Positions 23,985 through 61,082 of a DNA stretch of 64,000 bases are shown one piece after another (position 1 is the stretch's first letter; the number at the start of each line of letters is the position of its first letter). A model generated the notes under the pieces. That model was not told the origin of the DNA, did no database searches, and saw only the letters and a program-made list of their open reading frames with translations. This DNA comes from an uncultured delta proteobacterium (GTDB lineage Bacteria; Desulfobacterota; Desulfobacteria; Desulfobacterales; Desulfatirhabdiaceae). Made by a program: the position numbers and the translations under genes. The stretch lies in the NCBI GenBank assembly GCA_963850225.1, contig CAWKLD010000002.1:10107-74106 (forward strand), in the 5' to 3' direction.

Positions 23985-26528
23985 AAGCATCTCGCCACTT
24001 TTCCCAGATACTTCAATGGGGTGTCATTGCCGTGGTCGTTGCCGCAGTGATTGCAACCGGAATCTTGACCAACGTCACGCTGAGATCCATCGAAAAAAAC
24101 CTTCCGATCACGCTGCTTGGTGAACTTGCAATCCCTTGACCAGCTGCTCGAGAATCTTTCCGAAGTTGTTTTCGCTGCAGAAGCAACCCGAATGGTGCCG
24201 ACTCCTGAAAACTATATTAAACTTCGACAAAAGGTCGAGATCGTTTTCGACGGCGTCGTAAAACTGCGCGATACGTATGTATTCGACAATCTGGTTCAGG
24301 CTTCCGCCTTTCACGCTGTTGTCGCTCCGGCTATCAGCGACGTTCAACTCTGGCTTGAGGAAGGCGTATCGGGGTATGGCCCGGAAACAGCCACAACACT
24401 GGATATTGCCCTGTCCCGAATCACCGGAGCATTTTCAAAGGCCAGAGTCCTTAACCATGATTCCCAGAAAATTGCCCAGAAAATCCTGAGTGAACAGCGC
24501 ATCCGTCTGGAACATTTTCTGCTCAGCGTCAATCTGCTCTTCCTGCTGACGCTGGCCATCACAGTCATCATGATTTTTCTCGATCGCACGCAGGCAGGTT
24601 TTTCTCCGGCGGGAGATTGAAGTTCAGACGGAACTCCGGCGTGCAGAGAAAACGCTTCGGGAGACCGAGGAGCTTTACAGCAAGCTGATCGCCTCCATCC
24701 CCGATATCGTTATCCGAACGGATGTCAACGGTCAGATTCTCTTTCTGAATGATATTACGCTCCAGATCAGCGGATATCAGCAATCCGAGATCCTGGGGAA
24801 AAACCTTCTGGAATTCATTGCACCCGAGGATCAGGAATCCGCCGTCGAGAACATGATGCTGATGTTCGACCGCAGACTCGGCCCCAAAGAATATTCGCTG
24901 ATCAAGAAGGATGGAAATAAAATTCCTTTTGAAGTCAATTCGGATGTTCTTCGCAGGAATGACGGATCACCTTACGGGACCGTAAACATCTGCCGCGATA
25001 TCAGCAAACGACTGGAGGCGGAGGAAGCGCTGAGGGAAAGTGAAAAACAATACCGATTGCTGGTTGAAAATGCCAATGATGCCATTTTCATCGCTCAGGA
25101 TGGCAAAATCAAGTTTCCAAATCCAATGGCCCGGGAAATCCTCGGATTTACAAAAGAACAACCGGAAGAAATTCCATTTGTCGACTTCATTCATCCCGAA
25201 GACCGCGAAAGGGTCTTAGATCTGCATCGTCGCAAGTTGTCCGGTGAAGAACACCTTCCGACAAATTATTCCTTCCGGATCATTAACAGCGCCGGCAGGG
25301 AATATACGGTGCAATTGAATGCCGTCAAAATTGCGTGGAAAGGGCGACCTGCCACCCTGAATTTTGTCAGAGACATCACGGATCAGCTGAATCTGGAAGC
25401 CAGTTTGCGTCAGGCTCAAAAAATGGAGGCCATCGGCACGCTGGCAGGCGGCATTGCACATGATTTCAACAATTTATTAATGGGAATTCAGGGCCGCATT
25501 TCGCTGATGCTGTTCGGAATGGAGGCTGGTTCTCCTTATTTCGAACACCTCAACCGCATCGAGGCTTGCGTGAAAAGCGCAACCGATCTTACCCGGCAGC
25601 TTCTGGGGTTTGCCAGAGGGGGCAAATACGAAATCAAGCCAACCCGCATGAATGACATTCTGGACCAGAGCATTGACATGTTCGGACGGACGCGTAAAGA
25701 AATTCAAATACACAAGGATTACGAACCGCATCTCTGGACAACGGAAGTCGACCGGGGGCAAATGCATCAGGTGCTGCTGAATTTATTCGTCAATGCCTGC
25801 CAGGCAATGCCAAGCGGCGGAAATTTACATCTGCGGACTGAAAACTGCGTCATTCAAGAATCCATGCTTTTGCCTCCGGAATTGAGTCCAGGCAATTATG
25901 TAAAAATTTCCGTCACCGATACGGGCGTGGGAATGGATGAAGCTACAAAGGCGCGCATATTCGAACCATTTTTCACCACAAAGGAAATGGGACGGGGAAC
26001 GGGATTGGGACTGGCTTCATCCTACGGCATTATTCGAAACCACGGGGGATGGATCTTTGCAGACAGCAGCATCGGAAAGGGCAGTACGTTTAGTTTTTTT
26101 CTGCCGGCATCGGAGAAAACCGTGAAGCCGCAGAGCCATGCCCCAGCAAAAGCGTTAAAAGGAACAGAATCGATTCTGCTCGTTGACGATGAAGCCATTA
26201 TCATCGATATCGGCAAACAATTCCTTGAAGTTCTCGGATACACCGTTTTCACCGCAAGTTCCGGCCAGGAGGCAATCGAGACCTACAGACGGGAATTCGA
26301 GACAAATCGACTTGGTGATTCTGGACATGATCATGCCGGAGATGGGTGGCAGCGAGACGATTCAGCGCATCAAAGCCATCAATCCCGAAGCCAGGATTGT
26401 TCTTTCAAGCGGTTACAGCATCAATGGAAAGGCCGCAGGAAATCATGAATCGCGGATGCAATGGATTCATTCAAAAACCATACGGCATCACTGATCTATC
26501 GGAAACGATCCGCAAAGCCCTTGAATGA
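23981..26528 (+). pseudogene. hybrid sensor histidine kinase (periplasmic loop, PAS domains, HisKA, HATPase, receiver), about four frame switches
   Basis: ATG 23981 overlaps the TAXI stop (ATGA). Pieces 23981.., 24117..24620, about 24574..26448, 26183..26494 and 26346..26528. Motifs AHDFNNLL (H-box), GTGLGL, and IDLVILDMIMPEMGG receiver. Switches near 24125, 24590, 26300 and 26433. Confidence 0.8.
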
Positions 26529-26531
26529 GAA

Positions 26532-27250
26532 TCAGTGCGTGTGTGGATCTATTTTGCCGGATCCGACGGAGATCAGATCCACTTCGAAAATCAAGGTGCT
26601 GTTGGGAGGAACTCCGCTGCCGGCCCCACGCTCACCGTAGGCGAGTTTGGAAGGAATAAAGAGCTCCCACTTGGCCCCTTCCTTCATCAACTTGCAGGGC
26701 CTCGGTCCACCCGGCAATGACACGATCGACCTGAAAACTGGCCGGTTTGTTTCGCTTGAAGGAACTGTCGAACTCGGTACCATCGATATGCGTGCCTCGG
26801 TAGTTGACGGTTACGGTATCGGTTTCTTTGGGCGCAGCGCCGGTAGCCCTCGCGCACCACCCGGTACTGAAGCCCGCTCGGAAGAACCTGAACACCTTCT
26901 TTCTTGGCATTTTCAGACAGAAAGGCTTCTCCTTCGGCCAGATTCTTGTCCTTGTCTTTTAATCGTTTTTCCCTTTCGGTTTTCTCTATCCGCTTTTTCA
27001 GATCTACCAGGACGGTCCGCATTTCCTGAGGTGTCATCAGGGGATCGGTTCCTGCAAGCGCATCCTGTATCCCCTTCACAACCAGCTCGGGCTGCAGCTC
27101 CACCCCCTGGCGCTTGAGGTCTCCGCCAATCTGATAACCAAGGCTGTAATTGACTTTGTCTTTTTCATCCTCGATTTTCGGTGTTTCAGCAGCAGCGCTG
27201 ATATCGAAAAACAGAATCACGGTAAGCGCGGTAAGCATCAGATATTTCAT
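26532..27250 (-). pseudogene. FKBP-type peptidyl-prolyl isomerase (FkpA/Mip-like, secreted), two frame switches
   Basis: Pieces 26687..27250, 26632..26910 and 26532..26783 are collinear. Signal peptide, dimerisation helix, then [18 protein letters not shown]...[10 protein letters not shown] | [22 protein letters not shown]. Switches near 26845 and 26691. Confidence 0.8.
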
Positions 27251-27322: not shown

Positions 27323-29669
27323 TCACGGAAGTGGAGGCTCTGTCTCCCCAGGCGACATAACATACATCGCCCGCATCATCTCGTTATCCTCGTGCTCGAC
27401 AATGTGGCAGTGCCAGACATAAAGCCCGGGTTTGTCAAATGTGGCTTTGATACGGGTGACCTCCCCGGGATACGCGATGACCGTGTCCTTCAAGCCGGTC
27501 TCGCCTGGCTCGGGACTTCTCGGCTGAGCATCGTCATCCGGAAAAGCGGGGGCCACGGCGACGCCGTCATCGTCTACATTATCCAGCGCCTGACGGTTGA
27601 CAACCTGGAACCCCACCAGATGCAGGTGGATGGGATGAGCATCCGCAGTGAAGTTATAGATTTCCCACAGTTCGGTATCGCCCAGCATCGGGGTTTCCGT
27701 GATCATTTCCGACCACATCATCGGTGTCGGGTTTCCGTTATTATAAGTACCGAGCAATGCAGCCGCAGGACCATCCCATATTTCAGACATCTCCTCATTG
27801 AGACTGAGCCGTGCGCGTAACCGTGGGTTCGGGAATGGTTTCAGTCGTAACGGAAACCGGTATGGAGAAGTTTTCTCCCCGGCTTAAATCATCCGCAACC
27901 ACGTTAAACATCATCACCTGGCCTGTTGTATCATGATCCGCCGGATCAAAATCCTTGTTCGGCTCACCGCCGCCAAAAGGCTCATCCGGTCCTTGATTGA
28001 CAAGGTAGACCCGCGTACCGGGCGCCACATCCGAAAAGTTTACGATGACGTCGGCCCGCTCCGAAGGCCCCATGAGGAGTTGATCCATAACAGCGGGTTT
28101 GGGCAGCAACCCTTGTTCCGCACCGATCTGGACAAACTTGGCTCGGCAGGTCAACCCAGGTTTGGGGATTGTTGATATCCGTTGCAGTCACCAATTTCAG
28201 GATGAGAAACCGGGAATTGCAGCCATTCAGCAAGCGAAAACGGTACATGTCGGGCTCCACGGCTTGAACGGGCCAGGTCCGGCCGTTCACGACCATGGTG
28301 TTGAAAAATGCTTCCGGATTCCAGATCGGTGAAAGATCGGATTCGGGATCGGGAATATAGGGTCCGGGATAAGTGTCGAAATCTTCGCGGCTGTCCGGAT
28401 AATGCAGTGAACCGTCGGCATTGAACGAGCGGTCCTGAATGACAATGGGGATTTCCCAATACGGGGGTGCATCCAGCATGGGATCGGCGGGAACCCACAA
28501 GGGGTCTCCGGGTTTTGGCGCCGGGCCGGGAAGATTGAGGCTGTCTTCAATATCGTCCCTGACGAGCCAGAACCCAGCGGGTCCGGCATAAACATTGACC
28601 CGGGTCATACCCAGGGTGTGATCGTGATACCAGAGGGTAGCTGCGGGCTGACTGTTGTCATATTCGAAAACGGCCTTTCCCGGAACAAACGATTCAACGG
28701 ATCCGAAATTGTTGCCCTTAAGCGCATAACCTGCGGGATATTTGGTAGCTGCAGGCAGCCACCAGGCCTCGGGATAGCCGTCGCTGATCGCATCCACATG
28801 CGCCCCGTGAACGTGCGTCACCATGGGAACAGGTCCCTTGTAAAACCGCCCGAGGTTGTCCGCGTTGTAAACCGCCGACGGATCAGGCCTGCAATCGGTA
28901 TGGAATCCGCCATCCATGCACTTCAAGCATCTCCGGATTGGCCCAGTGCAGGGACCGGTCTACCGCCAGCAGATGCGGAAGGTATTTCCCCGATTCGTCA
29001 ACAAGACCGTTTGTCCAGGTGACCCTGGCAACCTCGTCCCTGCGCACCTCAACTGTAAATGCCGGATAATTGAAGGTGGAACCTGGCTGGCCGGGTGCCG
29101 GCCCCAACAGATCGCCATAACTCCATACGGTTGTCTTGGGAAAGGGGAGAGGCAGGATCTGCTGATCGAACTGCTTGACAGCAATCTCGTACTTCGAGTC
29201 CCACGGGGTGATCGCCTGCTGATCCGGGGACAAATCCGCCTTGCGTGCCGCAGCAGGCATCACCGGGGGAATAATCAGGAAATCCTGGTACTTCGGAATA
29301 ACCTTTGAATCCAGAAGCGGGGAGAGATTCCCGATAACGATTTCAAGAATGTTGGAAAAAGGGACTAGGTTCAGTGCCGCCGTAGGCCTGGACCCCAACG
29401 TAAAAAGCGGCGCCTTCCCAGAGATTGAACAAAGCATCTGTTTCCATTCCCAAGTTGACGGTCCCGATGGATTCGATTCCCGTGAAGGGAATCGCAGCAT
29501 AGACCAGAAGATAGCCGGTTGCTTCGGGAACCTGAGTCCAGGAAAGGTTCACCCAGGATCCTGAGGTTGATAGGGAGAGAACCGGCGGCTGGGGTTGAGA
29601 CTGCGCTGTGGCTGATATCATAAAAACAAATATAAAAATTACAGCAAGCAATATATTGTTCCGTCTCAT
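27323..29669 (-). pseudogene. secreted three-domain multicopper oxidase (CotA/bilirubin-oxidase-like) with N-terminal FN3-like module, four frame switches
   Basis: Pieces 29343..29669, 28883..29500, 27982..28926, 27795..28154 and 27323..27790 are collinear. All four Cu motifs are present: THVHGAH, WYHDH, HPIHLH, HCHIVEHEDNEMM. Signal peptide MRRNNILLAVIFIFVFMISATA. Confidence 0.8.
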
Positions 29670-29683
29670 GGCATTTTCCTTTC

Positions 29684-29767
29684 TTTCTTAAAAATTATTG
29701 ATCAAAATCTTCATGCACGCATACTCTATTCTGTTCTGAAGGAAAACGTTTCTTAAAAATTAATGAT
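29684..29767. repeat. 19-nt direct repeat TTTCTTAAAAATTA(T/A)TGAT, two copies 65 bp apart, in the AT-rich region upstream of the oxidase gene
   Basis: Copies at 29684-29702 and 29749-29767 match at 18 of 19 positions. They lie 15-100 bp upstream of the oxidase start (29669, minus strand). Confidence 0.55.
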
Positions 29768-30548
29768 TCTATTTATTAAAACAATAGCTGAATCCTAATT
29801 AAACAATAATTATCAATATATTATTATTAACTCCTAAAAGTCCAAATTGAGATGCCAATGCTTTTGCAGACCCGTTTGTTCAAGTTATTTGAATTTAAAG
29901 CACTTATCATGCCATATCGCTGTTTTATGGAAAATAACTATTAATATAAGTATGTTATATATCTTATTAATATATTGAAGGCTGCTTCAAGAAGGCCTGC
30001 ATCCTTCCATTTCCTCAATCTTGAAACTCTTAAAATAAATAAAACAATATTATCAGATTGTTATAAATAAGTAATCAATTATGGGATAGTCAATTTTGGC
30101 TAAGTCCGGCATATTCGAAGACGAAGGAAAGCAGAGAGACATTAATCTTTAACTTAACATAGCGCGAAACAATCAAACGCAGTGGGAAATTTATGACTGG
30201 CGCACTCATTGATAACCCGGCGCCAATTTTCGCGTAACCTGCAGGAGAAATGAACGAAAGATCATGACAGAGACCGCAGAAGGATATAAAATCGAAGCTT
30301 AATGTTTCGCATGGGCTATTTTCGATGGAAGTGACGGGACGCGGATGAAAAATCATTGATACAGCCAGAGACATTACCGAAAGAGGTTTATAGTTGCATC
30401 ACAATCCGGCCAATCGCAAGGCTTAAGGGAGCTTCTACGACTGACCGGATTGTTGTCACACAAAAACATGTTTTCAGGGCAAAAGCATCACTGCAAAACC
30501 CATGGCTTTAAAACCGAAAAACCAAACGGCTGTCCGATATAAAACAAA

Positions 30549-32405
30549 CTAATCATTACTGCCGCCGGAAAGCTGGTTTTCATGACAGAGATCGCAACTG
30601 ACCTGCGTACCTTTGGGAATGGGAACTATGCGTCCTTCCACAGAAAACGTCCGGTTCACGGCTGCCCTGGAAATAACCGTCCCGGCTCCGGTCACACCAT
30701 GACATGTCCCACAAGCTTGCTGAGATTTGAATTTTTCATGTCCGTTGACCCATGCCTGACTGTTTACATTGTGCATGCCGTGTGGCCCGCCGTTAGGAGT
30801 CAGGGGCAATCCGCTTCCATGACAGGCCGTGCATTCTGTGATCATGCCGTCATGGCCCTGAATCGCAGTAGCAGCCAGGTTGTCATTTGCCTCCCGGGAC
30901 GGCCATTCCGCATGGGGGCTACCGTGACAGGACTCACATGCCACGCCGTTATGTCCAACGCTGTTCCGATAAAGTGTGTTATCCTGCTCGGCAAAGCGCT
31001 TGTTTGCAGCAACGATAGTGGTGGCCTTGTCCGGGCTATCGGCATAGGCGCTGCGCCGTATGATCTGGCCACCGTAGTTATTGATTGCGTCACCCGTGTG
31101 GCAGGACTGGCATTTGGGCAGGTCGGTCCATGGCTGACGGTTTGCCTGGGCCACCGCGTTCATGGTACCGTGACAGTCCAGACAACTCAGGCCTGCCGTA
31201 TCCATAGCGCCTCTGGCGCATTGCGTTTTTTCACCCGGATGGCAATAATAACAGGCGTTTCCACTGGGCGGCTGTGTGGTGGTCCGCGAGGCATGATACC
31301 CGTGAACGGCCCGAGACAGGGTCGGATTCATGACTTGAGGCCCCACAGGCCCGGTGTGCCCCAGATCCAGCGCGGGGGAATAATGGCAGGACGCGCAGAG
31401 AACCGGCTGGCTGCTGAAAAGCGTCGTGTTGTTTCTATAATCGTGAAGAATCAAAATGTTTTCCCTGAACTGAATCGCGGGATCGACACTTTTGCTCCAT
31501 TTAACACCTGCAAGGCTAGCCCCCACATTGCCAGTATCGTGACAGACGTTACAGGCCATTTCATTGGATACGGGAACCACCACAGGAAGAGAAGAAAGGA
31601 TTTTTGCGTTTGCCGGGTCCAGGGCATGTACATTCATCAATGGATAGGAATTGATTTTATTGTTGTCGTCAACCGCCGTTATCGGAATGCCTGGGGCAGC
31701 AAACCAATTCGTCGATCCACCCTCCCATGAAAAAGGTTGAGGCTGATTAACGGATCCGGGCATTTTTGCTCCCAGCAATCCCTCATCAACCGGAGGGTTC
31801 ATACCGAACAGGGCAAGCACATGGACCCAGAAATTTGTTTTGCCGAAACTGGTCGAATTGATCGATCCTGTCCCGTCCGCCATGGCCTGGTATGTAACTT
31901 TGGCAGCCGGACCAATAATTTTTGGAGAGCTTCCTTTCTGAATAACCTGCGCATGCAGCACATTAAAGACCGGCAGAATACTGAAAACAGAAAAATCGGG
32001 ATCATAGCAGTGCATGCCAAGATCATTGAAAGCAAATACCTGGAAATTTCCCGACAGCGGTGAGGGATTGATGATGACCTCCAAAATGTTCGAATACGGG
32101 CTCAGTCCGGAGCCATCACGGGCCTGAATCGCCAAATAATAGGCGGCCCCAACCCAAAGATTTCCCGACAAACCGGTTGACATCCCCATATCCGCAGTTC
32201 CTATTGACGCAATGCCCGTGAAGGGAATCGGGGCAAAAGACAGGGTATAGCCCGTTGCCCCCTGAACAGGAGTCCAGGAGATATCAACCCAGGTTCCAGA
32301 AGTTACCAGGCTTAGTACCGGAGGTTGTGGTTGAGAATGCGCCAAACCGGATATCAGCAAGATTATGGCGCTGGTCACGATTAGTAAGTGTTTGTTCCAT
32401 TTCAT
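30549..32405 (-). CDS. secreted nonaheme c-type cytochrome with N-terminal FN3-like module
   Basis: 618 aa, intact. Signal peptide. Nine CXXCH motifs (CNVCH, CASCH, CYYCH, CLDCH, CQSCH, CESCH, CTACH, CGTCH, CDLCH). RBS GGGAGAA. The N-terminal roughly 90 aa is paralogous to the oxidase N-terminus. Confidence 0.85.
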   Translation of the reverse strand: MKWNKHLLIVTSAIILLISGLAHSQPQPPVLSLVTSGTWVDISWTPVQGATGYTLSFAPIPFTGIASIGTADMGMSTGLSGNLWVGAAYYLAIQARDGSGLSPYSNILEVIINPSPLSGNFQVFAFNDLGMHCYDPDFSVFSILPVFNVLHAQVIQKGSSPKIIGPAAKVTYQAMADGTGSINSTSFGKTNFWVHVLALFGMNPPVDEGLLGAKMPGSVNQPQPFSWEGGSTNWFAAPGIPITAVDDNNKINSYPLMNVHALDPANAKILSSLPVVVPVSNEMACNVCHDTGNVGASLAGVKWSKSVDPAIQFRENILILHDYRNNTTLFSSQPVLCASCHYSPALDLGHTGPVGPQVMNPTLSRAVHGYHASRTTTQPPSGNACYYCHPGEKTQCARGAMDTAGLSCLDCHGTMNAVAQANRQPWTDLPKCQSCHTGDAINNYGGQIIRRSAYADSPDKATTIVAANKRFAEQDNTLYRNSVGHNGVACESCHGSPHAEWPSREANDNLAATAIQGHDGMITECTACHGSGLPLTPNGGPHGMHNVNSQAWVNGHEKFKSQQACGTCHGVTGAGTVISRAAVNRTFSVEGRIVPIPKGTQVSCDLCHENQLSGGSND

Positions 32406-34645: not shown

Positions 34646-36814
34646 TCATCTTTCAATAAACCTTCGGTACTCCACCATTCTGGAAAAAGCCTTTACAGCC
34701 CGCTCCGGGCTTTCGTAAAATATGCCTTTATACCGGCTGTCGTTGACGCTGCAAACGGTTTTGTCCTGGCATTCCTTCAGCAGGCTGACGCCAAACACCG
34801 GCTTTTCACAGGTTTCCATCAAGCCAACGATATGCCGGACATATTCGGTTTCAAACTCCAGCATCTTCTCGCTCATCATGGCCAGAAACTCCGATGAATA
34901 GGTCGGATCGGATTTGGATATGGATTCGGCCATTTTATTGGCCAGAATCCTTCGGCCCATGATGCCCAGGTTGATCACCGCATCGCAGCCGTCCCATTTC
35001 ATCAGGGCTTCCATGATGCGGATGGGAATGGTCATGTCATTTTCCCCAACGATATCCACCGGATTTGAATGACTCCAGTAGGGCGGCAGAATGGAATTGA
35101 TATGTGCGATCAGCTCCTTTGAAAGCTCCGGAACTTCAATATGGTATTCCGAGCACAGATCGGCCGTCACGACCCCCCACCCGCCGCCAAGGGTCATGAT
35201 GGCTGCCCGGTTTCCCTTGGGAAGGGGCAGGGACGAAAATGCAGCCGACAGATCCAGCAGATCCATGGAACGTTCCACCTTCACGATACCCGCCTGCCGG
35301 CAGACGGCGTCAAAGATCCGGGAATCCGAGCTCAAGGCTCCGGTATGACTGGCCGCAGCCTTGTTTCCAGCCTGACTCTGCCCGCCTTTCAAAAGGACGA
35401 TGGGCTTTTTTTTGCCGACGCGACGACAGCTTTCCAGAAACCGCCTGCCGTTTTTAACGCTTTCCACATACAGCATTACGGTCTGGGTCAATGAGTCCTT
35501 CTCGAAAGCATCCACATAGTCCTCGATGGTTACCATGGCTTCATTGCCGGAGCCGCAAAAGGCCCGAATCCCGATGCCCTGCTGCTCGGCAAAAGCCAGA
35601 AGCTGTGTGCCCATATTTCCGGACTGGGCAACCACGGCCGTTGATCCGGGTTCCGGAAGCACATGGCTTCCAGTACAATACAGGTGTATATGCGGGTTGC
35701 AGATTCCCATGGTATTGGGACCGATAACCAGAACACCGTTCTGCGCGGCTTTTTGAATGAGTTCTACTTCCAGAAGCTTTCCGGAGGGACCGACTTCAGC
35801 AAATCCGGATGAGATCAGCAGCATGTTGGTAATACCCTTGGCCTTAAACTGAGGAAGCAGGCCCATGACAGCAACCGCCGGTACCGTAACCACGGCCAGG
35901 TCGATTTTCCCCGGAACCTCGGCAACCGACCGGAAAACCGGGCGGTTCGCGATGGTCCCGCCTTTGGGATTGACCAGGAAAATCTCCCCTTTATAGCCCC
36001 TTCCGGCGGTGATGGCAAAGAGCATATGCCCCCATTTTCCGATCATGGCGGAAGCCCCGACAAAGGCAATGGAACGGGGATAGAAAAGCGAACCAATGGC
36101 GTAAGGATCAATGGCCGGCAGATGTTTCTGAAAAACCGTCTCTGCCTCCAGGACGACCAGTGCGTCCACGGCACATACAGCGCCATTAGATGCTATCAAC
36201 AAGGGGTTGATATCAATTTCTGAAATCTGGGGATGGGCCAGGGCCACTCGGGACAAGCCCATCAATGTTTGAACGACGGCATCAATATGAACGGCGGATT
36301 CTCCCCTGAACTCCCCCAGAATCCGCTTTGCCTTGATTTCACCGATCATCTCCAGGGCATCGGTTTGGGTAAGGGGCGCCACCCGAAGCGTGACATCGGA
36401 AAGCGCTTCGGTAAAAATACCACCCAGCCCCAGCATGACGACCGGCCCGAACTGCCTGTCCCGAAACAGGCCGGCAACCAGTTCGCGTTTTCCCTGAATA
36501 AAAGGCTGAACAAGAAAGCCTTCGAGTTCCGAGCCGGCTTCGGCAGCCATGGCCGTTGCGGCAGCAATCACCGCCTGAGAAGAAGACAGATTTACCTGCA
36601 CCAGTCCCCGCTCGGTTTTATGCAGCAGGGTTGACCCAAGGGCTTTAATTACAACGGGAAATCCCATTGTTTCGGAAACTGCAACCGCATCATCCACATG
36701 CTGTGCGATTTTTTCCGGAACCACCGGAACCCCGAACGCCGACAACAGGATTTTGGATTCATATTCGTTCAGGGCACGTTTGCCCAGAGACAGCGCTTTT
36801 TCAAGGATTTGCAC
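34646..36814 (-). CDS. ADP-forming acetyl-CoA synthetase (acetate--CoA ligase family), fused beta-alpha domain order
   Basis: 722 aa. N-terminal ATP-grasp part (NEYESKILLSAFGVPV...), then CoA-binding/ligase part (SIAFVGAS..., GPNTMG, catalytic His in AAASHTGAL). GTG start preceded by AAGGAG. Confidence 0.85.
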   Translation of the reverse strand: MQILEKALSLGKRALNEYESKILLSAFGVPVVPEKIAQHVDDAVAVSETMGFPVVIKALGSTLLHKTERGLVQVNLSSSQAVIAAATAMAAEAGSELEGFLVQPFIQGKRELVAGLFRDRQFGPVVMLGLGGIFTEALSDVTLRVAPLTQTDALEMIGEIKAKRILGEFRGESAVHIDAVVQTLMGLSRVALAHPQISEIDINPLLIASNGAVCAVDALVVLEAETVFQKHLPAIDPYAIGSLFYPRSIAFVGASAMIGKWGHMLFAITAGRGYKGEIFLVNPKGGTIANRPVFRSVAEVPGKIDLAVVTVPAVAVMGLLPQFKAKGITNMLLISSGFAEVGPSGKLLEVELIQKAAQNGVLVIGPNTMGICNPHIHLYCTGSHVLPEPGSTAVVAQSGNMGTQLLAFAEQQGIGIRAFCGSGNEAMVTIEDYVDAFEKDSLTQTVMLYVESVKNGRRFLESCRRVGKKKPIVLLKGGQSQAGNKAAASHTGALSSDSRIFDAVCRQAGIVKVERSMDLLDLSAAFSSLPLPKGNRAAIMTLGGGWGVVTADLCSEYHIEVPELSKELIAHINSILPPYWSHSNPVDIVGENDMTIPIRIMEALMKWDGCDAVINLGIMGRRILANKMAESISKSDPTYSSEFLAMMSEKMLEFETEYVRHIVGLMETCEKPVFGVSLLKECQDKTVCSVNDSRYKGIFYESPERAVKAFSRMVEYRRFIER

Positions 36815-52823: not shown

Positions 52824-53465
52824 TCAGTACAAAGATTCCTTTTTGTTTTTCATAATAAACAGCGGAGCCAGAAAACCGGACACCGGCCCAACCCTTACCT
52901 CCCATCTGGTTAACTGCCGAATCGCGTTTTTCTGCGATTCGGCCAATCCGGGGATGATGAGCGTCTGATGAACGATTTTATTTGCGACCTCGTTATCCTG
53001 CATGGATTTCCAAACATCAATGGCTTTGAACATCCGTTCGTGTACGGCGTTATCTACAGAATATCCATGTGTAAATATCGGCAACAGGTAAGCACGTGAG
53101 TCTGTCTGCTCGAGAATAGTTTGCATAATTTGCACGGTCTGGCGAAAATTGCAGGTGATCAGCAATGGATCATCTGCACCTGGGGAACCAATTTCTATCA
53201 ACCTGCAATCAGCCTGCTCCATCATGATATTATAGGGAATAGGATCTTTATCCAATTTTACGATTGAAGCCATAACGTTGGCAAGATCGGCGGACAGTTC
53301 CGGACATTTGTGCGGCGCCAGTTTTTGAGTTAGAACAGCTTCGGCAAATTCAACACAGTTGTCAAAACCGCAGGCTCCACAATCGATTTCAGGCAAATAG
53401 CTACTGAAATCTTCGGCTTCAGGCGGATAAATACTGGCCATTTCCTGTTCAACGACCATAGGCAT
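52824..53465 (-). CDS. minimal corrinoid/Fe-S protein: CFeSP-type [4Fe-4S] domain fused to an AcsC/HgcA-type corrinoid-binding domain
   Basis: 213 aa, intact. CGACGFDNC-X16-C gives the C-X2-C-X4-C-X16-C spacing of the CFeSP large subunit/RnfB FeS domain. The C-terminal half LLITCNFRQTV...LLPIFTHGYSVDNAVHERMF...HQTLIIPGLAES...WEVRVGPVSGFLAPLFI is collinear with the HgcA/AcsC corrinoid domain. Confidence 0.6.
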   Translation of the reverse strand: MPMVVEQEMASIYPPEAEDFSSYLPEIDCGACGFDNCVEFAEAVLTQKLAPHKCPELSADLANVMASIVKLDKDPIPYNIMMEQADCRLIEIGSPGADDPLLITCNFRQTVQIMQTILEQTDSRAYLLPIFTHGYSVDNAVHERMFKAIDVWKSMQDNEVANKIVHQTLIIPGLAESQKNAIRQLTRWEVRVGPVSGFLAPLFIMKNKKESLY

Positions 53466-53623
53466 TACTCCTTGATGCGATTATCTGGTTCATTTGTTGT
53501 GTAAGGTTTTCCAGTCTGTTTATTAAAGAAAGGATTTCCCGGCAGTGAGACCCAAAATGAATCATCTGTTTTCCCGACAGCCTGTTTACAGACAAAATAC
53601 ATATGCCTTCAGGCTTGTCCGGA

Positions 53624-54196
53624 TCATTCAACGGCGATAAATTTTTTGGCGTCAACTCCGCAATAGGGACATTTTTTCGGTGGCTCATTCTCGACAGTGT
53701 GGCCGCACAACGGGCAGACATGATACACAGTCGTCTGAACGTCAGCCGGATCACGCAATGCTTTTTTAAACAGCTTTGCATGAACCATTTCAATAGACAT
53801 GGCGTACTCCAGGCTGTGCCTGGCATCAAGCGCATTTTCTTCGACTGCATCCCGAATCATTGCAGGATACATTATTTTAAACTCTTCTGTTTCACCATCG
53901 ATCGCAGCCTGGAGATTCTCGGCTGTCGATTTAACGCTGCCACCTGACTCAAGCTGCGCTATGGCAAGGGCTGATTTTTCTTCCGAATTCAGATCGACAA
54001 TGATCTGTTCTTCCGCCTTCAAAACACATTGATGGGATTTCGCATGGACTTTTTCAGCTACCGCCGCTGCTCTAAAAAGGCGTGCCACTCCGGAATATCC
54101 TTCTTTTTCGGCCTGTTTTGCAAAAGCACGATACCGAATGCTTGCGTGAGCCTCTCCGTTCAATGCATGATGAAGATTTTGTGCTGTTTTGCTCAT
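53624..54196 (-). CDS. rubrerythrin
   Basis: 190 aa. Diiron four-helix motifs (EAHASIRY, EKVHAKSH, EFKIMYP, EMVHAKLF) and C-terminal rubredoxin CPLCGH...CPYCG. Confidence 0.9.
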   Translation of the reverse strand: MSKTAQNLHHALNGEAHASIRYRAFAKQAEKEGYSGVARLFRAAAVAEKVHAKSHQCVLKAEEQIIVDLNSEEKSALAIAQLESGGSVKSTAENLQAAIDGETEEFKIMYPAMIRDAVEENALDARHSLEYAMSIEMVHAKLFKKALRDPADVQTTVYHVCPLCGHTVENEPPKKCPYCGVDAKKFIAVE

Positions 54197-54254
54197 TGAA
54201 TCGCTCCTGTAACAAGATTGGGGTTGGTTGGAATCGTCTGATATTTTCCCCTTC

Positions 54255-56037
54255 TCACGGGGAGGTGATCAGCGCGATCAAATCGAACACTTTTTCCTTG
54301 CAGGCTCTTTCACATCTGCGACAGGCCACGCCATCGCAAAGGGCCAGATTAATGGATATTCTATAATTCGCATTTTCCGTTTCCATTTCCAGCGCATTCT
54401 CGGGGCATTCCGCAACGCAGTCTTCACAGCCGATACAGCCGTCAAATCGGCAGGATCGCATGCGTCCGAGATCGGAGACGATTTTCAAGCCCATCTGGCC
54501 GAAATCCGGAATATCTCTTTCAACGGTTTTAATGACTTCCGGACGCCTGGTCACTTCATGGATTTCGGGCAGGCCATATTTTTTCAGAAATTTCTGGTAT
54601 TGCACAAAGGGCATGCCTTCGGTCCAGAAAGACAATTCCAGAATATAGACCTTTTCAAACGTCTTGGAAGCTGCAAACATACAATGATGTTGCCTGAGGT
54701 CATCGGCAACCTTCTTCATATGCCAGAGCGCATCATCCGATTTTACCACATCCCGGGCCATGGCCAGAGATGTGTTGCCAACCTGATAAATTTTTTGAAC
54801 ACCGGAAGGAATCATACCGATTTCCTGGGCTTTTAATAGCATCCACATAGGTACCGGATGCCCCGGAGCAGTAAGCGACTTTGATATCGTTCAAGTCGAT
54901 GCCTGCCTCATGGCATAGCGTGATATGACCGGCCCTGACGGCACCGATCGCCTTGCCGGCCTCCAGCAGGTCTTTTTCGGTAAATTTGATTCCATTTGGT
55001 AGATGAATTTCCGTATCCAGTGTGTTGATGCGGGGAATTTTGATCAACCTGGCTTTCAGACATTGGCTGATCAGTCCGACCACGCCGGTTCCGGTGATTC
55101 CGACGGCCGCGTAATCACCGGTCTCAAGACATCTTCCGGTATTCGGATCGACCGTATCTCCCGAACGGGCATGCATGTCCTGACCGAGAACAAAGGTTTT
55201 CAGTCGTCCTTTTAGGGGTTTGTCGCTGACTGGTCGTGCCGGTTATGCAGCCGTTGGAAGAATTGTGATCGCTCTTATCGCTCATCCTCGAAATAAATTT
55301 TGATTCGGATTCAATCGGCCGGATGTGCGCGAAGAACATCCGGCCAGCGTGACGGTTTCGGGTTCAAATTCGACATCACTGATCGCACCTGGAAGCGCCA
55401 GAAGTCCATCTTCGATATGCTGGCCTTCCAGTGCAGGTCCGGCGGCAGTGGAGCCGGTATAAACCTTTCCGTTTACCAGCAGCGCAATCTCGTTATTGGT
55501 ACCATAGTCCGTTACAACAACAATCTCTTTCTGATCCAGCATGCCGGTTTGAATCATCATGGCCAACGCATCGGCCCCGATTTCATGCCGAACCGCAGGT
55601 GGAATCAGAACATCCACTTCGGGTAACAAATCAAGGCCTGAAATTTCATGCGCTTTTACGATCATGGCATCGCGCTTGGGCGGCACCACGCCCAATGCAT
55701 CCAGTTTTCTTTTGCCGGCATAGGCCAGATCCCTGAATTCAATTTTCTGGAAAAGAGATAGTTGTATGGGATTTCCACATACCGCCACGCGAACGATCTG
55801 ATTTTTTTCTAACCGCAAATTGTCAATCACCTTGTTGACGGCATCCAGTACAATCTGATGGGTTTTCTCCAGACCGATCTCAAGGGCAAAGTGCAGATGG
55901 TCTATTACATTGGCACCGGGAAGAGGATGGCGTGTGGTAACAGCCGTTGACAAAATCATGCCGTTCTGGTCCAGATCCAGAGCCTGTCCGCGAAATCCGC
56001 TGGTGCCTAAATCCAGTGCAATACCGATTTTGCTCAA
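54255..56037 (-). pseudogene. RamA/RACo-type ATP-dependent reductive activase of corrinoid proteins (ASKHA fold plus C-terminal 2x[4Fe-4S] ferredoxin), about three frame switches
   Basis: Pieces 55282..56037, 55124..55339, 54733..55176 and 54255..54848. IALDLGTSGFRGQALD and VVVTDYGTNNEIAL ASKHA motifs. C-terminus CIGCEDCVAECP and CDGVACRRCERAC. The first and third pieces share a frame. The last switch is at T4 54831-54834. Confidence 0.75.
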
Positions 56038-56080
56038 TTGATGTTTTGCTCCTTTATTAATAACCTGTCGGCCGTATCGA

Positions 56081-56305
56081 TCAAGCTTGTGGATCCTTCA
56101 GCAGGCGCCGGCATTTCATACAAATCCAGTTCTCTTCGTCATCGGTCGATATCTGGGGAAAATGACCGTATAAATCATAATGGTCATTTCGAATCCGAGT
56201 CCAGTATTGTTTCACTTCCGTACAGGACAACCGCCTTCCCAAATCGTTTTCCGCGTCCGAATGCCAGCGGCCACATTTTGTACAACTCAGCATGGTCTCG
56301 ATCAA
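56081..56305 (-). CDS. small zinc-ribbon-like protein
   Basis: 70-74 aa (TTG at 56305 or ATG at 56293). CTKCG...(X48)...CMKC pairs of Cys. 43 bp upstream of the activase gene. Weak RBS. Confidence 0.4.
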   Translation of the reverse strand: MIETMLSCTKCGRWHSDAENDLGRRLSCTEVKQYWTRIRNDHYDLYGHFPQISTDDEENWICMKCRRLLKDPQA

Positions 56306-56423
56306 TTCCCGAGAAAAGAACGGTGAACAAATGTCCGATATTCAGAACTTGATGTGGATATTTTTTCGAAATGGCGAATGCAATTCAGTCCGGATTATTG
56401 CATGCTTACGTGATTTTGATCCC

Positions 56424-56454
56424 AAAAAACGCATTCCGGGTTTGACCCGGAATG
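56424..56454 (-). terminator. rho-independent terminator downstream of mtaB
   Basis: CATTCCGGG / CCCGGAATG 9-bp stem (56432-56440 / 56446-56454) with a 5-nt loop, followed on the minus strand by CGTTTTTTGGG (A6 at 56424-56429 on plus). Confidence 0.7.
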
Positions 56455-56464
56455 GCGGTATTTT

Positions 56465-56500
56465 CTGCCGGTTCCCAATCTGGAGCTTGGGAACCGGCAG
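56465..56500. repeat. perfect 14-bp inverted repeat (CTGCCGGTTCCCAA-N8-TTGGGAACCGGCAG)
   Basis: Read directly: arms 56465-56478 and 56487-56500. It lies between the mtaB stop and the terminator. A third 7-bp hairpin sits at 56534-56553. Confidence 0.8.
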
Positions 56501-56553
56501 ATGCGCGGATTATGGCGCAGTTCAACACTTTCGGTCCGTTCAGTCGAACGGAC

Positions 56554-57929
56554 TTAGAGCCCATATGAGCCAGGATTGAATCCCTTGACATTCTTGTATT
56601 TTTTCAGACAATCGTCAATGAATGTACCTTCGTCATCCGGCAGGGCTTCCAGATCTTTCATGGCCTTATTCAAAGCCTCAGTCTCGAGCTTGGTGAGTTT
56701 CATCTTTTTGTCGCCCAGAATGATTTTGCCGGCCTCGATCGCGCCGGCTCTGGCACTGGCATAATTGCTCTTTCCCCGGTTCTGGACAATGGCGTTGCCA
56801 ACTTTCCATGCATTGTCCGGTGCCAGAATCAGACTGTGGGAATCCCGATACATATCGGAGTTGACCAGAATTTCTTTCATCTGCTGCTGATAGCCCAGTT
56901 CGATGGCGGAGTTGAACATGGCGCAGTCGTACCCGAGGATCTCGGCGAAGACCGATGTCGTGGTGGCGCCGAACATGTCATGGTATTCCACGGCCTCGTT
57001 GCTCCACACGTCGGTTACGGCGGCAATGAGGTTGCCCGCCAGGTCGGAATGCGCGCAAGCGCTGGTTTTACCCTCGCAGGAGATGGGAACACCGGCCATG
57101 GCTTTGATGATGGGATCTTCGTATGCACAGTCTTTGGTCGGACCAGTGGCGCCGCATTCGTAGGCCACCAGGGTTCTGGATGCGGCAATGGCACGGGACA
57201 AAGCAGCCATGACTGAGGCACGTCCTTGGATGTCATACCGCCGGCCATGAACATGGCGGTATTGGCCTCGGAGCAGTTAGGTGTCGCCGCCAGGGATGCA
57301 GTTGTTCTTTTTGGCGATAGCGACGATCTGATCCCACATCCACTCCATATCGATGGCGCCCAGTACACCGATACCGAACAGAATCCCCGCGATATCGTTA
57401 CGGATGATGGCATGGTCAAAAACCTCTTTGCCACCCATGGACTCGATGGAAACAATATCTGCATATTTGGCACATTCTTTGAAGGATTCAATGACCTCCG
57501 GGTGTAGTCACTTTGACGCATGTCGACCATATCGGGTTTGCGCAGATCGGCGATGGTAGCGCGATATGCAGCCTTCAATCCATATTTGGACAGGTAATCA
57601 TCCATCTGTTTGGCTGTCTGTGCGGCAATTTCTCCACCCCATTTCGGGTTGTGGGTCATCTGGAAGATATGTTCATTTTCAATCTGCAAAGTTGGATGTC
57701 CGACAATTACCATTCTTTCCAGGGCATCGCCGTTGGCCTTTTCATATTCCCTCAGCAATGTTTTCATGGTCTTTTCACTGCCGGGCCGGGGATGCGGCAC
57801 CACCTCGGGATGTACCAATCCGCCGCCGATTACAATTCCTCTCTTGGTGGTCACGGGATACTTGGCCGTGCCGAACATCATTTCCGCGCCGTCTTTGTAA
57901 GCCATCTTGGTGAGTTTTTTACGTGCCAT
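56554..57929 (-). pseudogene. mtaB: methanol--corrinoid protein Co-methyltransferase (MtaB family), three frame switches
   Basis: Pieces 57929 to about 57500 (frame A), about 57500-57285 (frame B), about 57285-57222 (A), and 57210..56554 (B). Collinear with Methanosarcina MtaB as I recall it: MARKKLTKMAYKDG...TAKYPV, SIESMGGKE, GGDT-CSEANTAMF, GKTSACAHSD, ...KGFNPGSYGL. Zn-ligand positions (Glu, Cys, Cys) are retained. Confidence 0.85.
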
Positions 57930-58092
57930 GTTTGATTCTCCCTTTTTGTTTTTTTGTTATTGAATGATTTCATTTCGGTTGTAACTCTTGGCTTTGATCT
58001 CTGCTGGCTGTTCTATGTCGGTTCTTCCCCCTTTCACGATTTCATGACCCCCAAGATCACGCCATGAACTTAACAGTTTGTAATTGATAGGT

Positions 58093-58108
58093 TGCAATCG
58101 AAGTGCCA
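58093..58108 (-). promoter_or_regulatory. sigma-54 (-24/-12) promoter of mtaB
   Basis: The minus strand reads TGGCACTTCGATTGCA, an exact TGGCAC-N5-TTGCA match, 164 nt upstream of the mtaB ATG and just downstream of the activator gene stop. Confidence 0.75.
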
Positions 58109-58175
58109 CCAGAACCAGTCAATTTGAATACTTTATAACATCACTGATATAGTACAATATAATTTCCAGGACAAA

Positions 58176-59663
58176 TCATGCTGTGTTCGGATGGGATTCC
58201 CAAATGTAACCATCGGTGACAGATCTGCTTGTTAAATGTAACAACCGGTTACATACAGATGATGACAATCCGTATTCCGAAAGCCTCAGATAGAGCAGTC
58301 GCCGCGTAATACCCAGCATTTTTGCCGCTGCCAGTTTATTGCCTTTGGTCAATTCAAGCGTTTTAACCAGCAACTCCTTTTCAACATCCCGAAGCCGAAC
58401 CCCCCCGTCGGGCAGTTGATTAATCATGCCCGTGGACTGAATTTCCATGCCAGTTTTCCGGCTCACTTCTTCCGGAAGGTCCTGAATGGTGATTTCTCCA
58501 TTTGAACAGGTCACCAGAAGCCGTTCTACAATATTGGCCAACTCCCGCACATTGCCCGGATAGCCGTAGCACATCAAAAGGTCTTTGACTTCTTCGGTCA
58601 GGACCGGTACTGCCAGATCCATTTCTTTTGCATAAACTTCCAGAAAATGATTCAGCAGCAGGGGAATGTCTTCCTTCCTGTCTCTCAACGGCGGGATAGT
58701 GATGGGTACGACATTGAGACGATAGAACAGATCATCTCGGAAATATCCCGATTTTACATCTTTTTTCAAATCCTGGCTGGTAGCTGCAATAATCCGCACA
58801 TCGGTTTTGATGGTGGCATTGCCTCCAACCCGCTGAAATTCTTTTTCCTGGAGTATTCTGAGCAGCTTGACCTGAAGCGCCTTGTCCAGTTCGCCGATTT
58901 CATCCAGAAACAAGGTGCCACCACTGGCAATTTCAAATTTGCCTTTACGCTGCTGCATCGCCGTGGTGAAGGCGCCGCGCTCGTGGCCGAACAGTTCGCT
59001 TTCCATCAGACTGGCTGGGATGGCGCCGCAGTTGATCGCAACAAAAGGAAAGTTTCTGCGAGTGCTGGTCTGACAGATCGTTCGGGCAATCAACTCTTTG
59101 CCCGTACCGCTTTCACCCTGAATCAAAACAGTGGCCGATGTAGGTTTCAATTTTTCGATCAGTCGATAAATGTCGTTAATGCCCCGGCTTTTACCGATAA
59201 TCACCCCAAAACGCTGTCTGGGTTCATCGGGTTTGACTGCCGTTTCTGATGACGATCTTTTCGTCCCCATTTTTTGGGCGATTCCCATCAGAATCGTGTT
59301 GAGACTGTGTTTGAGGCCCGGGCCTGAGTATTCATAAAACCCGCCGCCCTGGTATAAAAAAGGACCCATCGGACCGGTAATCAGAATCGCGGCATCGGGC
59401 GCAATTCGCCTGGCCTGTTGAAAAAAACCGCCGCCACCCATTTCCGAGGATTTAATGTCGATGATAATGATGGATACCGTTTTTGAATGACTGTTCAGTA
59501 CGGCCAGTCCCTGATGCTCATCCGCCACCCACAGCGGATCGAAGTCCTTTGAAGAAATAAACCGCGACAGAGACTGAAATGCCCGATACCGGTCATCGAC
59601 AATCAGAACCAGCGGCTTATCGCCTTTTGTCGGTCTGAACGTTTTTTCTTCTGAACTTATCAT
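58176..59663 (-). CDS. sigma-54-dependent response regulator (NtrC-type: receiver, AAA+, Fis HTH)
   Basis: 495 aa. Receiver LVLIVDD...[11 protein letters not shown]+ [11 protein letters not shown] and the GAFTTA (GAFTGA variant) loop. C-terminal [19 protein letters not shown]. Start overlaps the cobW-like stop (ATGA at 59660-59663). Confidence 0.85.
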
Positions 59664-60788
59664 TTGTTAAGCCTGCACTCCTGCTCGGACCCTTGTCGCA
59701 CTGACAAGGAATACGGATCATTGATTACGGCTTTCACTGCCGCCTGCCCGTTTGAGCGGCACTGCTGAAATGCCTTCTCGATCATCTCCCGGTTCAGGCT
59801 TTTGCCGATAACGGACACCTTGCTTTGGTTAAATGGCCGGATCGGCTGAATGGACACATCGCCGGAAGCCAGCTCCAGCACCTTCCAGGCAGTCTCTGTT
59901 CGGAATATTCCCTTGGCGCGAACGATTTCACCGTATCCGGACTGTGCGTCTGTCATCCGATGAAAAAGGCTTTCCAGGGAAAGCAGATCAAACCCGCTGT
60001 CGGCAAATACAAGGCCGAAGGATTCATAGCCCAAGGCGTCCGCAGTCTTTGTCAAAATGGGGCTGCGATCCGGCATCTTCCGGATGATCGAGTATTGTAA
60101 CCACCGGTCCTTTGCCGTTATTGGCTTTCGGCTGAACAGACGCTTTCCGGTGGCTGTCCGAATGTGTCGTTTTGTCACGATCAAGTTTGAATCCGGAACC
60201 AACAGACAGGGCGGCGTGATACTCGCTCCAGTTGATGGCTCCGAATTCGGTCATGAATACCGTCAGTTCGGGATTGATCGCGGAGATGGCGGACTGGATC
60301 ACCATGGCCTTTCGCTGATCTACCCGGTCACATTTGTTCAACATGATGATATGAGCGTTTTCCACCTGGGATTCGACAAAATGCCGGTTGGCCCGATACA
60401 GCCCCATGAAACCGGTGGCATCGGCAATCAGTATTTTGTGAATTCGGCTGATTTCCCGCTCGAACAACTGCGCTTCGAGAATCCACTGAATTTGCCCGAT
60501 TGTGGCGACCCCAGTGGGTTCTATGATGATTCTGTCCGGCTTTATGGTGCGGCTGATTTCCAGAATCTGAGCCCGAAAATCAGCCTGAAGCGTACAGCAG
60601 ATGCATCCGCTGGGCATTTCGACCACATTGCCGCCTTGTGATGACAGAAGCTCGCCATCGATACCTACATCACCAAATTCATTCACCAACACCACGATTT
60701 TTTCATCAGAATCCCATTCACGAAGGATTCGCGTGATAAACGTAGTTTTGCCGGAGCCTAAAAATCCAAAAATCACATCAACAATCAT
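59660..60788 (-). pseudogene. CobW/HypB/UreG-family (G3E) GTPase, one frame switch
   Basis: ORFs 60024..60851 and 59660..60202 are collinear. Likely start is ATG 60788 (MIVDVIFGFLGSGKTTF). CXCC motif GCICCT, NKCD, His-containing linker, and CobW_C-like tail (GYESFGLVF...VRAKGIF). Switch somewhere in 60050-60200. Confidence 0.8.
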
Positions 60789-61082
60789 CTTCGATACACT
60801 TTCCTGGTACACGGTGAAAGTTGTTAACGGATAGAAATAAACCTGAACCATGAAAATGCGATGTTCATCCGCCCTCTGAAGTCAACTTCTTATTCCGGTT
60901 CATATTCAAACTGACAGCTTTGTCAGCTTCGCAGCGATGAATTACGACGTACTGAAAAAGTGCAGTAATCATCGCTGCTCGTTTGGTTTCGCGGTCTCGC
61001 CTGAATGCTTGCCGGAACGTCATTTTTGAAACAAAATGAAATCACAACAAAAAAGAATTAAACGATTCGCCATCAGATCCTG

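Follow-up and report, generated by a model that had tools for sequence, protein, structure and literature searches.

A nonaheme cytochrome beside a CotA-type multicopper oxidase and a prolyl isomerase: a plausible exported redox pair in an uncultured Desulfatirhabdiaceae bacterium

Exported Proteins Encoded at the Locus

We analyzed a stretch of 64,000 nucleotides (nt) of DNA, hereafter the window, from an uncultured delta proteobacterium of the Desulfatirhabdiaceae (contig CAWKLD010000002.1, positions 10,107-74,106). Three co-oriented genes for exported proteins lie at one locus on its minus strand and encode a nonaheme c-type cytochrome, a multicopper oxidase and an FKBP peptidyl-prolyl isomerase (coordinates below are window positions, on the minus strand unless stated). 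A first-pass annotation had noticed that the cytochrome and the oxidase start with the same module and had proposed that they form a redox pair, with the module as their common docking device. The comparative analyses presented here bring new support for the redox pair, which we regard as plausible, and do not support the docking idea. The locus is a variation on the known theme of an oxidase, an isomerase and a cytochrome encoded together.

The cytochrome gene (30549..32405) is an intact open reading frame (ORF) of 618 amino acids (aa) that comprises a signal peptide, an FN3 domain, a second beta-sandwich and a nine-heme region. The length and heme number annotated initially were confirmed, as we counted exactly nine CXXCH and zero CX3-4CH sites. 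The nine motifs and the export leader identify the product as a multiheme c-type cytochrome; Pfam Cytochrome_C7 matched it with 38.5 bits (cut-off, 24.8), and its AlphaFold model had a predicted local distance difference test (pLDDT) score of 84.9. The signal peptide (aa 1-23, MKWNKHLLIVTSAIILLISGLAH; 32337..32405) is a hydrophobic leader that, judging from its residues, is probably of the Sec type and without a lipobox. It is followed by the FN3 module (aa 24-113; 32067..32336) and by the second sandwich (aa ~118-280; 31566..32054), which carries an N-D-L-G-M-H-C motif and marks the start of the conserved cytochrome core. Residues N127 and L129-C133 are invariant columns across 64 cytochrome sequences, and the model resolves this region as an Ig-like beta-sandwich with strands at residues 120-276 (pLDDT ~90). 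By motif count, the nine-heme region (30552..31565) has its CXXCH sites at aa 285, 337, 385, 408, 432, 490, 525, 565 and 604, all of them invariant in the 64 homologues. For these nine hemes, the core also offers eight histidines outside the motifs that are invariant and a ninth that nearly is, which fits a role for the cytochrome in electron transfer.

From about residue 115 onward, the cytochrome belongs to a large, uncharacterized family (>1,930 homologue matches). A PDB search with the family profile for a solved relative of the heme-bearing core gave FN3 matches only and no cytochromes at E ≤ 1. The best 50 Foldseek matches of the full model were swamped by FN3 domains and included zero proteins of the NrfA/OTR/OcwA type; a core-only model, whose heme region is of low confidence, gave nothing at E ≤ 1e-3 and no NrfA/OTR/OcwA protein among its best 50. 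By both the profile and the structural search, the protein thus shows no similarity to the NrfA/OTR/OcwA octa-/nonaheme group. Nor is it a member of the OmcA/MtrC decaheme family: NCBIfam TIGR03507 did not match the window cytochrome and scored 17.4 bits against a cut-off of 209 on the homologue P0065, TIGR03508 scored 27 against a cut-off of 192 on the window cytochrome, and the MtrC match to the core-only model was weak (E = 0.046, probability 0.09). Like MtrC and OmcA and the nonaheme OcwA of Thermincola, the protein is exported and has many bis-His-type CXXCH hemes, and it shares with MtrC a beta-sandwich domain ahead of the heme region; the similarity to these proteins in Pfam and NCBIfam is weak and spans one heme pair only. 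We also considered whether it is the nonaheme cytochrome proposed in Ferrigenium straubiae (bioRxiv 10.64898/2026.01.22.701106), which by its description (membrane-anchored, with an FeS-protein neighbor) looks different.

The core of the cytochrome (~500 aa; window positions 30552-32054; loci L025-L087 and L106-L169) is widespread in Desulfobacterota, Nitrospirota, Planctomycetota and sulfur-oxidizing Gammaproteobacteria, the last including Thiodiazotropha, Thiomargarita, Marithrix and Parabeggiatoa. Besides the NDLGMHC motif, the core contains an extra cysteine, Cys396, that is invariant. The N-termini across the family (P0021-P0120) consist of nothing at all, an FN3 domain, a ~100-aa 'AKWDN...PC.V.A' module or Big-like repeats of 100-270 aa, and several members are lipoproteins rather than Sec-cleaved proteins. 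An antisense ORF of 382 aa lies within the cytochrome gene (30582-31730, plus strand) and has similar shadow ORFs in 66 of 86 loci; we took it to be an artefact of composition rather than a gene.

The oxidase gene (27323..29669) encodes a three-domain protein of the CotA/bilirubin-oxidase type. Four frameshifts split the raw sequence into five ORF pieces, which are collinear with the intact 787-aa L001 orthologue (76-77% identity over the oxidase body); after removal of four single-base insertions the product has 780 aa and is collinear with intact orthologues of 772-794 aa. All four copper motifs reported in the first-pass annotation could be located: HVHG (28804-28815), WYHDH (28618-28632), HPIHLH (27620-27637) and HCHIVEHEDNEM (27377-27412), matching in turn the HxH, HxH, HxxHxH and HCHxxxHxxxxM patterns of multicopper oxidases. 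Pfam Cu-oxidase_2 (82 bits; cut-off, 20.4) and Cu-oxidase_3 (22.6 bits; cut-off, 21) both matched, and the best solved-structure matches of the orthologue P0128 were CotA laccases (E = 8.6e-69 to 3.7e-66). The three cupredoxin domains and the full set of copper ligand motifs are shared with Bacillus subtilis CotA laccase (PDB 1GSK) and bilirubin oxidases. Unlike CotA, a spore-coat protein of 513 aa, the window oxidase has a signal peptide, an N-terminal FN3 domain and long insertions, and it is exported in a Gram-negative-type anaerobe. Its signal peptide (aa 1-23, MRRNNILLAVIFIFVFMISATAQ; 29601..29669) is paralogous to that of the cytochrome and precedes the FN3 module (aa 24-112; 29333..29600). 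Oxidase homologues elsewhere carry dockerin, PF11999 or PF20597 domains, the last two of which we take to be ice-binding-like and adhesin-like, respectively.

Directly after the oxidase lies the gene for an FkpA-type periplasmic FKBP isomerase (26532..27250), which we found by tblastn with the intact 240-aa orthologue of L001. The window copy aligns along its length with two frameshifts, each a single-base insertion. The orthologues fit the FkpA type, which combines a signal peptide with a dimerization domain, FKBP_N (PF01346), and a catalytic domain, FKBP_C (PF00254), both of which they carry.

The cytochrome and oxidase had been described as adjacent genes on the same strand. The shared orientation stands, but a spacer of 879 nt with 35% GC separates them. 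An AT-rich block within it (29998..30100) is 78-90% identical in L001, L009 and L010 and contains -35/-10-like hexamers (30078-30049) that are not statistically enriched; we regard the block as a putative promoter or operator for the oxidase gene downstream. We also saw by eye an AACAAT..ATTGTT inverted repeat in the block. An Rfam scan of the 26-33 kb region gave no match at E ≤ 1, and terminator- and promoter-like sites were no commoner in this region than in shuffled sequence.

The Shared Module and Its Distribution

A gap-free alignment from SQPQPP reproduced exactly the 56 identities in 91 positions initially counted between the two modules. The signal peptides are also alike, and BLASTP of leader plus module aligned the cytochrome and the oxidase with 68 of 118 identities (E = 2e-44), well above what chance would give. 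At the DNA level, the two module copies are only about two-thirds identical and no likeness was seen upstream of the start codons, so the duplication is old.

The module had been called FN3-like, and it is a genuine FN3 domain. Of 21 modules taken from cytochromes and oxidases, 17 matched PF00041 at E ≤ 1 over its full length (best E = 2.2e-6). The window cytochrome module matched over positions 2-83 of 84 (E = 0.0015) with 19.1 bits, which is under the gathering score of 25 bits, and the oxidase module fragment, cut short by a frameshift, gave no match. A profile of the module also retrieved solved FN3 domains of tenascin-R (7e-6), collagen XX and fibronectin (E = 7e-6 to 1e-3). In the AlphaFold model, the cytochrome module is a seven-strand sandwich (residues 31-111, pLDDT ~90) whose top Foldseek matches in the PDB are FN3 domains, such as 2ede (target-normalized TM-score of 0.64; root-mean-square deviation of 3.6 A). 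The module therefore shares with PF00041 a full-length profile match, the conserved W, Y and G positions and the predicted seven-strand fold; it differs from it as a distinct bacterial subfamily whose window copies fall below the gathering score.

This subfamily is by no means confined to the pair. The module profile matched 18,655 representative proteins at E ≤ 1e-3, chiefly giant multi-FN3 proteins. Closer copies of the subfamily, recognizable by the signature YAPxPYxGP...LWxGAAYYVAVxAY, are 45-58% identical to the window copies and often occur as tandem pairs; their carriers include LRR, MopE-motif, TSP3/metallophosphoesterase, PKD, CAP, Lcl_C and reprolysin proteins. The 62% identity between the cytochrome and oxidase modules is only slightly above the best value for an unrelated carrier (58%). 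The presence of the subfamily on so many unrelated secreted proteins indicates that the shared module is generic rather than a purpose-built docking device, and we consider it likely to serve in export, as a spacer or in adhesion and to have been acquired by duplication at the locus. The first-pass annotation had itself named ubiquity of the module as grounds for abandoning its proposal, and in part this is what we found: the subfamily recurs on unrelated secreted proteins. Putative metal-binding motifs (PF11617, 'Cu-binding_MopE') were present in five of ten other carriers of the subfamily (P0283, P0284, P0294, P0310 and P0317).

Acquisition of the Leader and Module by the Oxidase

Module-bearing oxidases form only about 10 clusters, 73-86% identical, and the module is present in every one of the approximately nine full-length close orthologues in this range whose N-termini were read. 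The next homologues, at 56% identity, are without it: their sequence begins with LDP..IPKY directly after their own signal peptide, and this start coincides exactly with the module junction in the window oxidase. Many cytochromes, on the other hand, bear FN3, with module identities as low as ~35-40%. In a neighbor-joining tree of the ~90 module residues, the oxidase modules nest in the clade of the nearest cytochrome modules. The small number of module-bearing oxidases, the many module-bearing cytochromes and the nesting all suggest that the oxidase took over its neighbor's signal peptide and FN3 domain; copying from the adjacent cytochrome gene is the most likely origin on these sequence comparisons.

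Two other scenarios for the N-terminus were considered and rejected. Recent conversion between the FN3 copies within a genome does not fit the L001-type oxidase module, which is equally similar to the cytochrome modules of other genomes, so that any exchange must be old. A switch from a Tat to a Sec leader does not fit the nearest module-less oxidases (P0132 and P0135), which are without a twin-arginine motif; few homologues carry PF10518. We also observed a second lineage of oxidase modules (L090, 4847-7243; L001, 12232-14595) that shares only 47-52% identity with the window type (29333-29600) on oxidase cores of ~79% identity, which hints at a re-capture or second exchange, an old gene conversion or accelerated divergence.

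Using the L001 and L009 sequences, we estimated ratios of nonsynonymous to synonymous substitution rates (dN/dS) of 0.24-0.44 for the oxidase FN3, 0.16-0.24 for the cytochrome FN3 and 0.12-0.14 for the oxidase catalytic core. The oxidase FN3 thus evolves faster than the cytochrome copy or the catalytic core while remaining under purifying selection.

Gene order in relatives suggests how the two genes came together. The order dynamin-like gene, cytochrome, oxidase and FKBP is kept in L001, L009, L023 and the contig of the closest relative, the last with identical synteny and every gene intact (618, 780, 253 and 847 aa). In L008, where the cytochrome is 80% identical to that of the window, the next gene is that for the orthologous histidine kinase, oxidase and FKBP being absent from this site, and L019 is likewise a close relative without the two genes. 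Conversely, L088, which has the closest module-less oxidase, encodes the oxidase and then the FKBP with no cytochrome nearby, and L090 has the order cytochrome, FKBP, oxidase. From the arrangements in L088, L008 and L090, we conclude that oxidase and FKBP form a mobile two-gene cassette.

Recurrent Association of the Cytochrome Family With Oxidases

A functional link between cytochrome and oxidase had been proposed from the window alone, and relatives supplied independent support for it. Of 148 distinct loci of this cytochrome family (1.6 Mb of flanks), 8, from about four lineages, have a CotA-type oxidase as a neighbor; by a rough estimate that assumes one such gene per 4-Mb genome, ~0.4 loci would be expected by chance. 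Besides the window clade, these neighborhoods are represented by L010, L067, L045 and L155 and are mostly without a shared module. L010 pairs a cytochrome 79% identical to that of the window with a different oxidase, which is 34% identical, has its own KR-type Tat-like leader and lacks FN3. In L067, a C-terminal remnant of an oxidase lies beside the cytochrome. L045, a gammaproteobacterial metagenome-assembled genome (MAG), and L155, a metagenome contig with a gammaproteobacterial-type locus and a cytochrome 74% identical to that of L045, both have oxidase and FKBP genes within 5 kb of the cytochrome or divergently adjacent to it. Cytochrome and oxidase share no module in L010, L045 or L155. 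A neighborhood that recurs mostly without the shared module supports a redox partnership like that of mofABC and not an FN3 docking device.

The mofABC cluster of Leptothrix discophora encodes an oxidase (mofA), a prolyl isomerase (mofB) and a cytochrome c (mofC) (PMC5566968), and the related ompB cluster of Geobacter sulfurreducens encodes a MofA homologue, OmpB, that bears FN3 (PMC5566968). A gene content of the mofABC type was found in the window, L001, L009, L023, L090 and the P0121 contig, in all of which oxidase, FKBP and cytochrome genes occur together. The window locus resembles the mofABC and ompB clusters in grouping genes for a secreted multicopper oxidase, an isomerase of the FKBP type and a c-type cytochrome, and the proposed roles also correspond, with the isomerase as folding helper and the cytochrome as electron-transfer partner. 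FN3 on the oxidase is a further likeness to OmpB and to the OmpB/OmpC group of outer-surface multicopper proteins. The comparison with Geobacter made in the first-pass annotation nevertheless has to be reduced to an analogy, because the window oxidase (780 aa) is of the CotA/bilirubin-oxidase type and is set apart from MofA and OmpB by their published description, OmpB being described as a MofA homologue (PMC5566968). Its FN3, moreover, is N-terminal and apparently copied from the neighboring cytochrome. The cytochromes differ as well: MofC combines a cytochrome c domain with a periplasmic binding domain (PMC5566968), a description that sets it apart from the nonaheme window protein, which is of another family. 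Compared with mofABC, L155 has an oxidase, an FKBP and a one-CXXCH protein in addition to the nonaheme cytochrome. That protein (578 aa; L155 2373-4109, minus strand, after the oxidase and FKBP) has a weak Cytochrom_C match and a large extra domain, a layout that resembles the published description of MofC.

No universal neighbor of the cytochrome emerged from four distant loci or from all-against-all clustering of the neighbors in 86 loci. The clustering returned only the cytochrome itself, its antisense shadow ORF, genus-specific synteny and one 27-locus cluster (longest member, 1,295 aa), probably of histidine kinases, whose frequency is explicable by chance.

A Model for the Locus and Its Alternatives

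The explanation towards which we lean, without regarding it as secure, combines these elements. A pre-existing cassette of oxidase and isomerase would have come to lie downstream of the cytochrome gene in one Desulfobacterales lineage, where the oxidase's own signal peptide would have been replaced by a copy of the cytochrome's signal peptide and FN3 domain. FN3 would be generic, the frameshifts in the window artefactual and a redox link from cytochrome to oxidase likely. Multicopper oxidases accept electrons at the type-1 copper and pass them to O2, and we therefore take the cytochrome to be the donor. The isomerase may help to fold and mature the oxidase, and the cytochrome could hand electrons to the type-1 copper of an oxidase that reduces O2 to water. 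Such a system would act as an electron sink or O2 scavenger, either in the periplasm or outside the cell, with a gene content comparable to that of mofABC. Physiologically, the system could serve O2 scavenging in an anaerobe, or the oxidation of metals or organic compounds with another role for the cytochrome.

Several observations weigh against this explanation. Within the cytochrome family, solitary genes with no oxidase nearby are in the majority, and most oxidase homologues are without such a cytochrome in their vicinity; the enrichment is a rough estimate that draws on few lineages. The interaction of the two proteins is argued from sequence and gene neighborhood, and O2 is an odd electron acceptor for a presumed anaerobe. 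The 879-nt spacer with its promoter-like block means that cytochrome and oxidase need not be co-transcribed. As for the copied module, its tree rests on ~90 residues and neighbor-joining only, and purifying selection on the oxidase FN3 (0.24-0.44) implies that the domain does something, so that co-localization of the partners remains conceivable.

Some of the same observations would be expected if the two genes were neighbors by accident. The cassette would then encode an independent copper, phenol, metal or O2 oxidase that acquired its leader by recombination, with FN3 as a passenger, and the job of the cytochrome would be unrelated. The existence of the cassette without the cytochrome in L088, its absence from the close relatives L008 and L019, the usually solitary cytochrome and the long spacer with its own promoter-like conserved block all agree with such a history. 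An accident would not account for the repeated, independent pairing of this cytochrome family with CotA-type oxidases, which involves differing oxidases and gene orders, or for the retention of the oxidase FN3 across the clade instead of its decay. We consider this alternative possible but the less probable one.

It appears improbable that the shared FN3 has a dedicated docking or localization role, by which both proteins would meet at one site on the outer surface and serve extracellular electron transfer or metal oxidation. Such a role could explain why the module is under purifying selection in both proteins (dN/dS of 0.16-0.44) and was kept in each of the close oxidase orthologues that were read to the N-terminus. 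The oxidase family also carries other anchoring-type domains elsewhere (dockerin, PF11999 and PF20597), and Geobacter OmpB is an FN3-bearing oxidase needed for the reduction of Fe(III) oxide (PMC5566968). On the other hand, the FN3 subfamily reaches 58% identity on unrelated secreted proteins against 62% within the pair, cytochrome and oxidase are also neighbors without sharing it, and several different N-terminal additions occur among the cytochromes of the family, some of which have none. The faster evolution of the oxidase FN3 relative to the cytochrome copy and the catalytic core points the same way. Furthermore, the genes nearby include none for a porin, an anchor or a cognate receptor, and the outer-surface siting itself is a supposition.

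If, as we favor, the pair is a redox partnership built around a mobile cassette, the locus bears on the role of multicopper oxidases, such as OmpB and MofA, in anaerobes and in metal cycling. The recurrence of a CotA-type oxidase with its own prolyl isomerase next to this nonaheme family provides a concrete candidate for the electron donor, and the intact orthologues P0002/P0121 or P0008/P0128 are available for expression. The locus would also be an evolutionary example of a newcomer gene that takes on the export signal and first domain of its neighbor. Its value is tempered by an ordinary shared domain, an uncultured host and an error-prone window sequence. A bolder and rather doubtful extension is that the nonaheme family could be the dedicated physiological donor of CotA-type oxidases. 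Donor and oxidase, together with the FkpA-type chaperone, might then form a compact exported 'cytochrome:O2 oxidoreductase' or metal-oxidizing module, assembled repeatedly in anaerobic Desulfobacterota and sulfur-oxidizing Gammaproteobacteria, with the copied leader and FN3 co-localizing the partners in the window lineage.

Integrity of the Oxidase Gene and Other Genes in the Window

As assembled, the oxidase reading frame is interrupted by four single-base insertions. The first-pass annotation had noted one frame switch within the oxidase module, which is correct for the module, but three more lie outside it. Frameshift 1 is an extra base in a T5 run (29353..29357) and is the one inside the FN3 module. 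Alignment to the orthologue placed frameshift 2 at 28924 (context ATGCTTGAAGTGC) and frameshifts 3 and 4 at one extra base among four each (28140..28143 and 27809..27812, respectively). Frameshifts of the same kind affect neighboring genes: a hybrid histidine kinase (24065-26528, plus strand) is broken at least four times by single-base insertions, and all ten frameshifts mapped in 24-29.7 kb (oxidase, FKBP and histidine kinase) are +1. Natural gene decay is expected to give a more mixed mutation spectrum. Farther away, the conserved genes for CobW (59660-60851; a single-base insertion) and MtaB (56554-57929; not a single-base insertion, unlike in the other broken genes) are frameshifted too. 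Such damage to several conserved genes suggests that the assembly has a systematic error in its consensus. The dN/dS of the window branch was 0.17 for the oxidase, essentially that of the intact cytochrome (0.155), and oxidase orthologues in relatives are intact. The uniformity of the insertions across neighboring genes, the intact orthologues and the dN/dS of 0.17 indicate that the frameshifts are probably assembly errors, and sequencing or assembly error is their most likely cause.

The first-pass annotation had allowed that the gene might instead be dead, and a true loss of the oxidase (and FKBP) here, with real frameshifts and no functional pair, has some points in its favor. Four frameshifts fall within 2.35 kb and none in the adjacent cytochrome, dynamin-like and acetyl-CoA-synthetase genes; the cassette has been lost in close relatives such as L008; and only a remnant of the oxidase is left in L067. 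We nevertheless judge this very unlikely, given the exclusively +1 insertions, the similar breaks in the unrelated CobW and MtaB genes, the selective constraint on the window branch, the same kind of breakage in a related long-read MAG locus (L023), and oxidase segments that show no in-frame stops or deletions and are each 76-77% identical to L001.

Other genes in the window give some indication of the lifestyle of the host. Genes for an MtaB-type methanol:corrinoid methyltransferase, CobW and rubrerythrin lie at 52824-60851, and the P0121 contig has an annotated orthologue of a further window gene, which is of the ADP-forming acetyl-CoA synthetase type (34646-36814). Both findings would fit an organism that lives anaerobically and is possibly methylotrophic.

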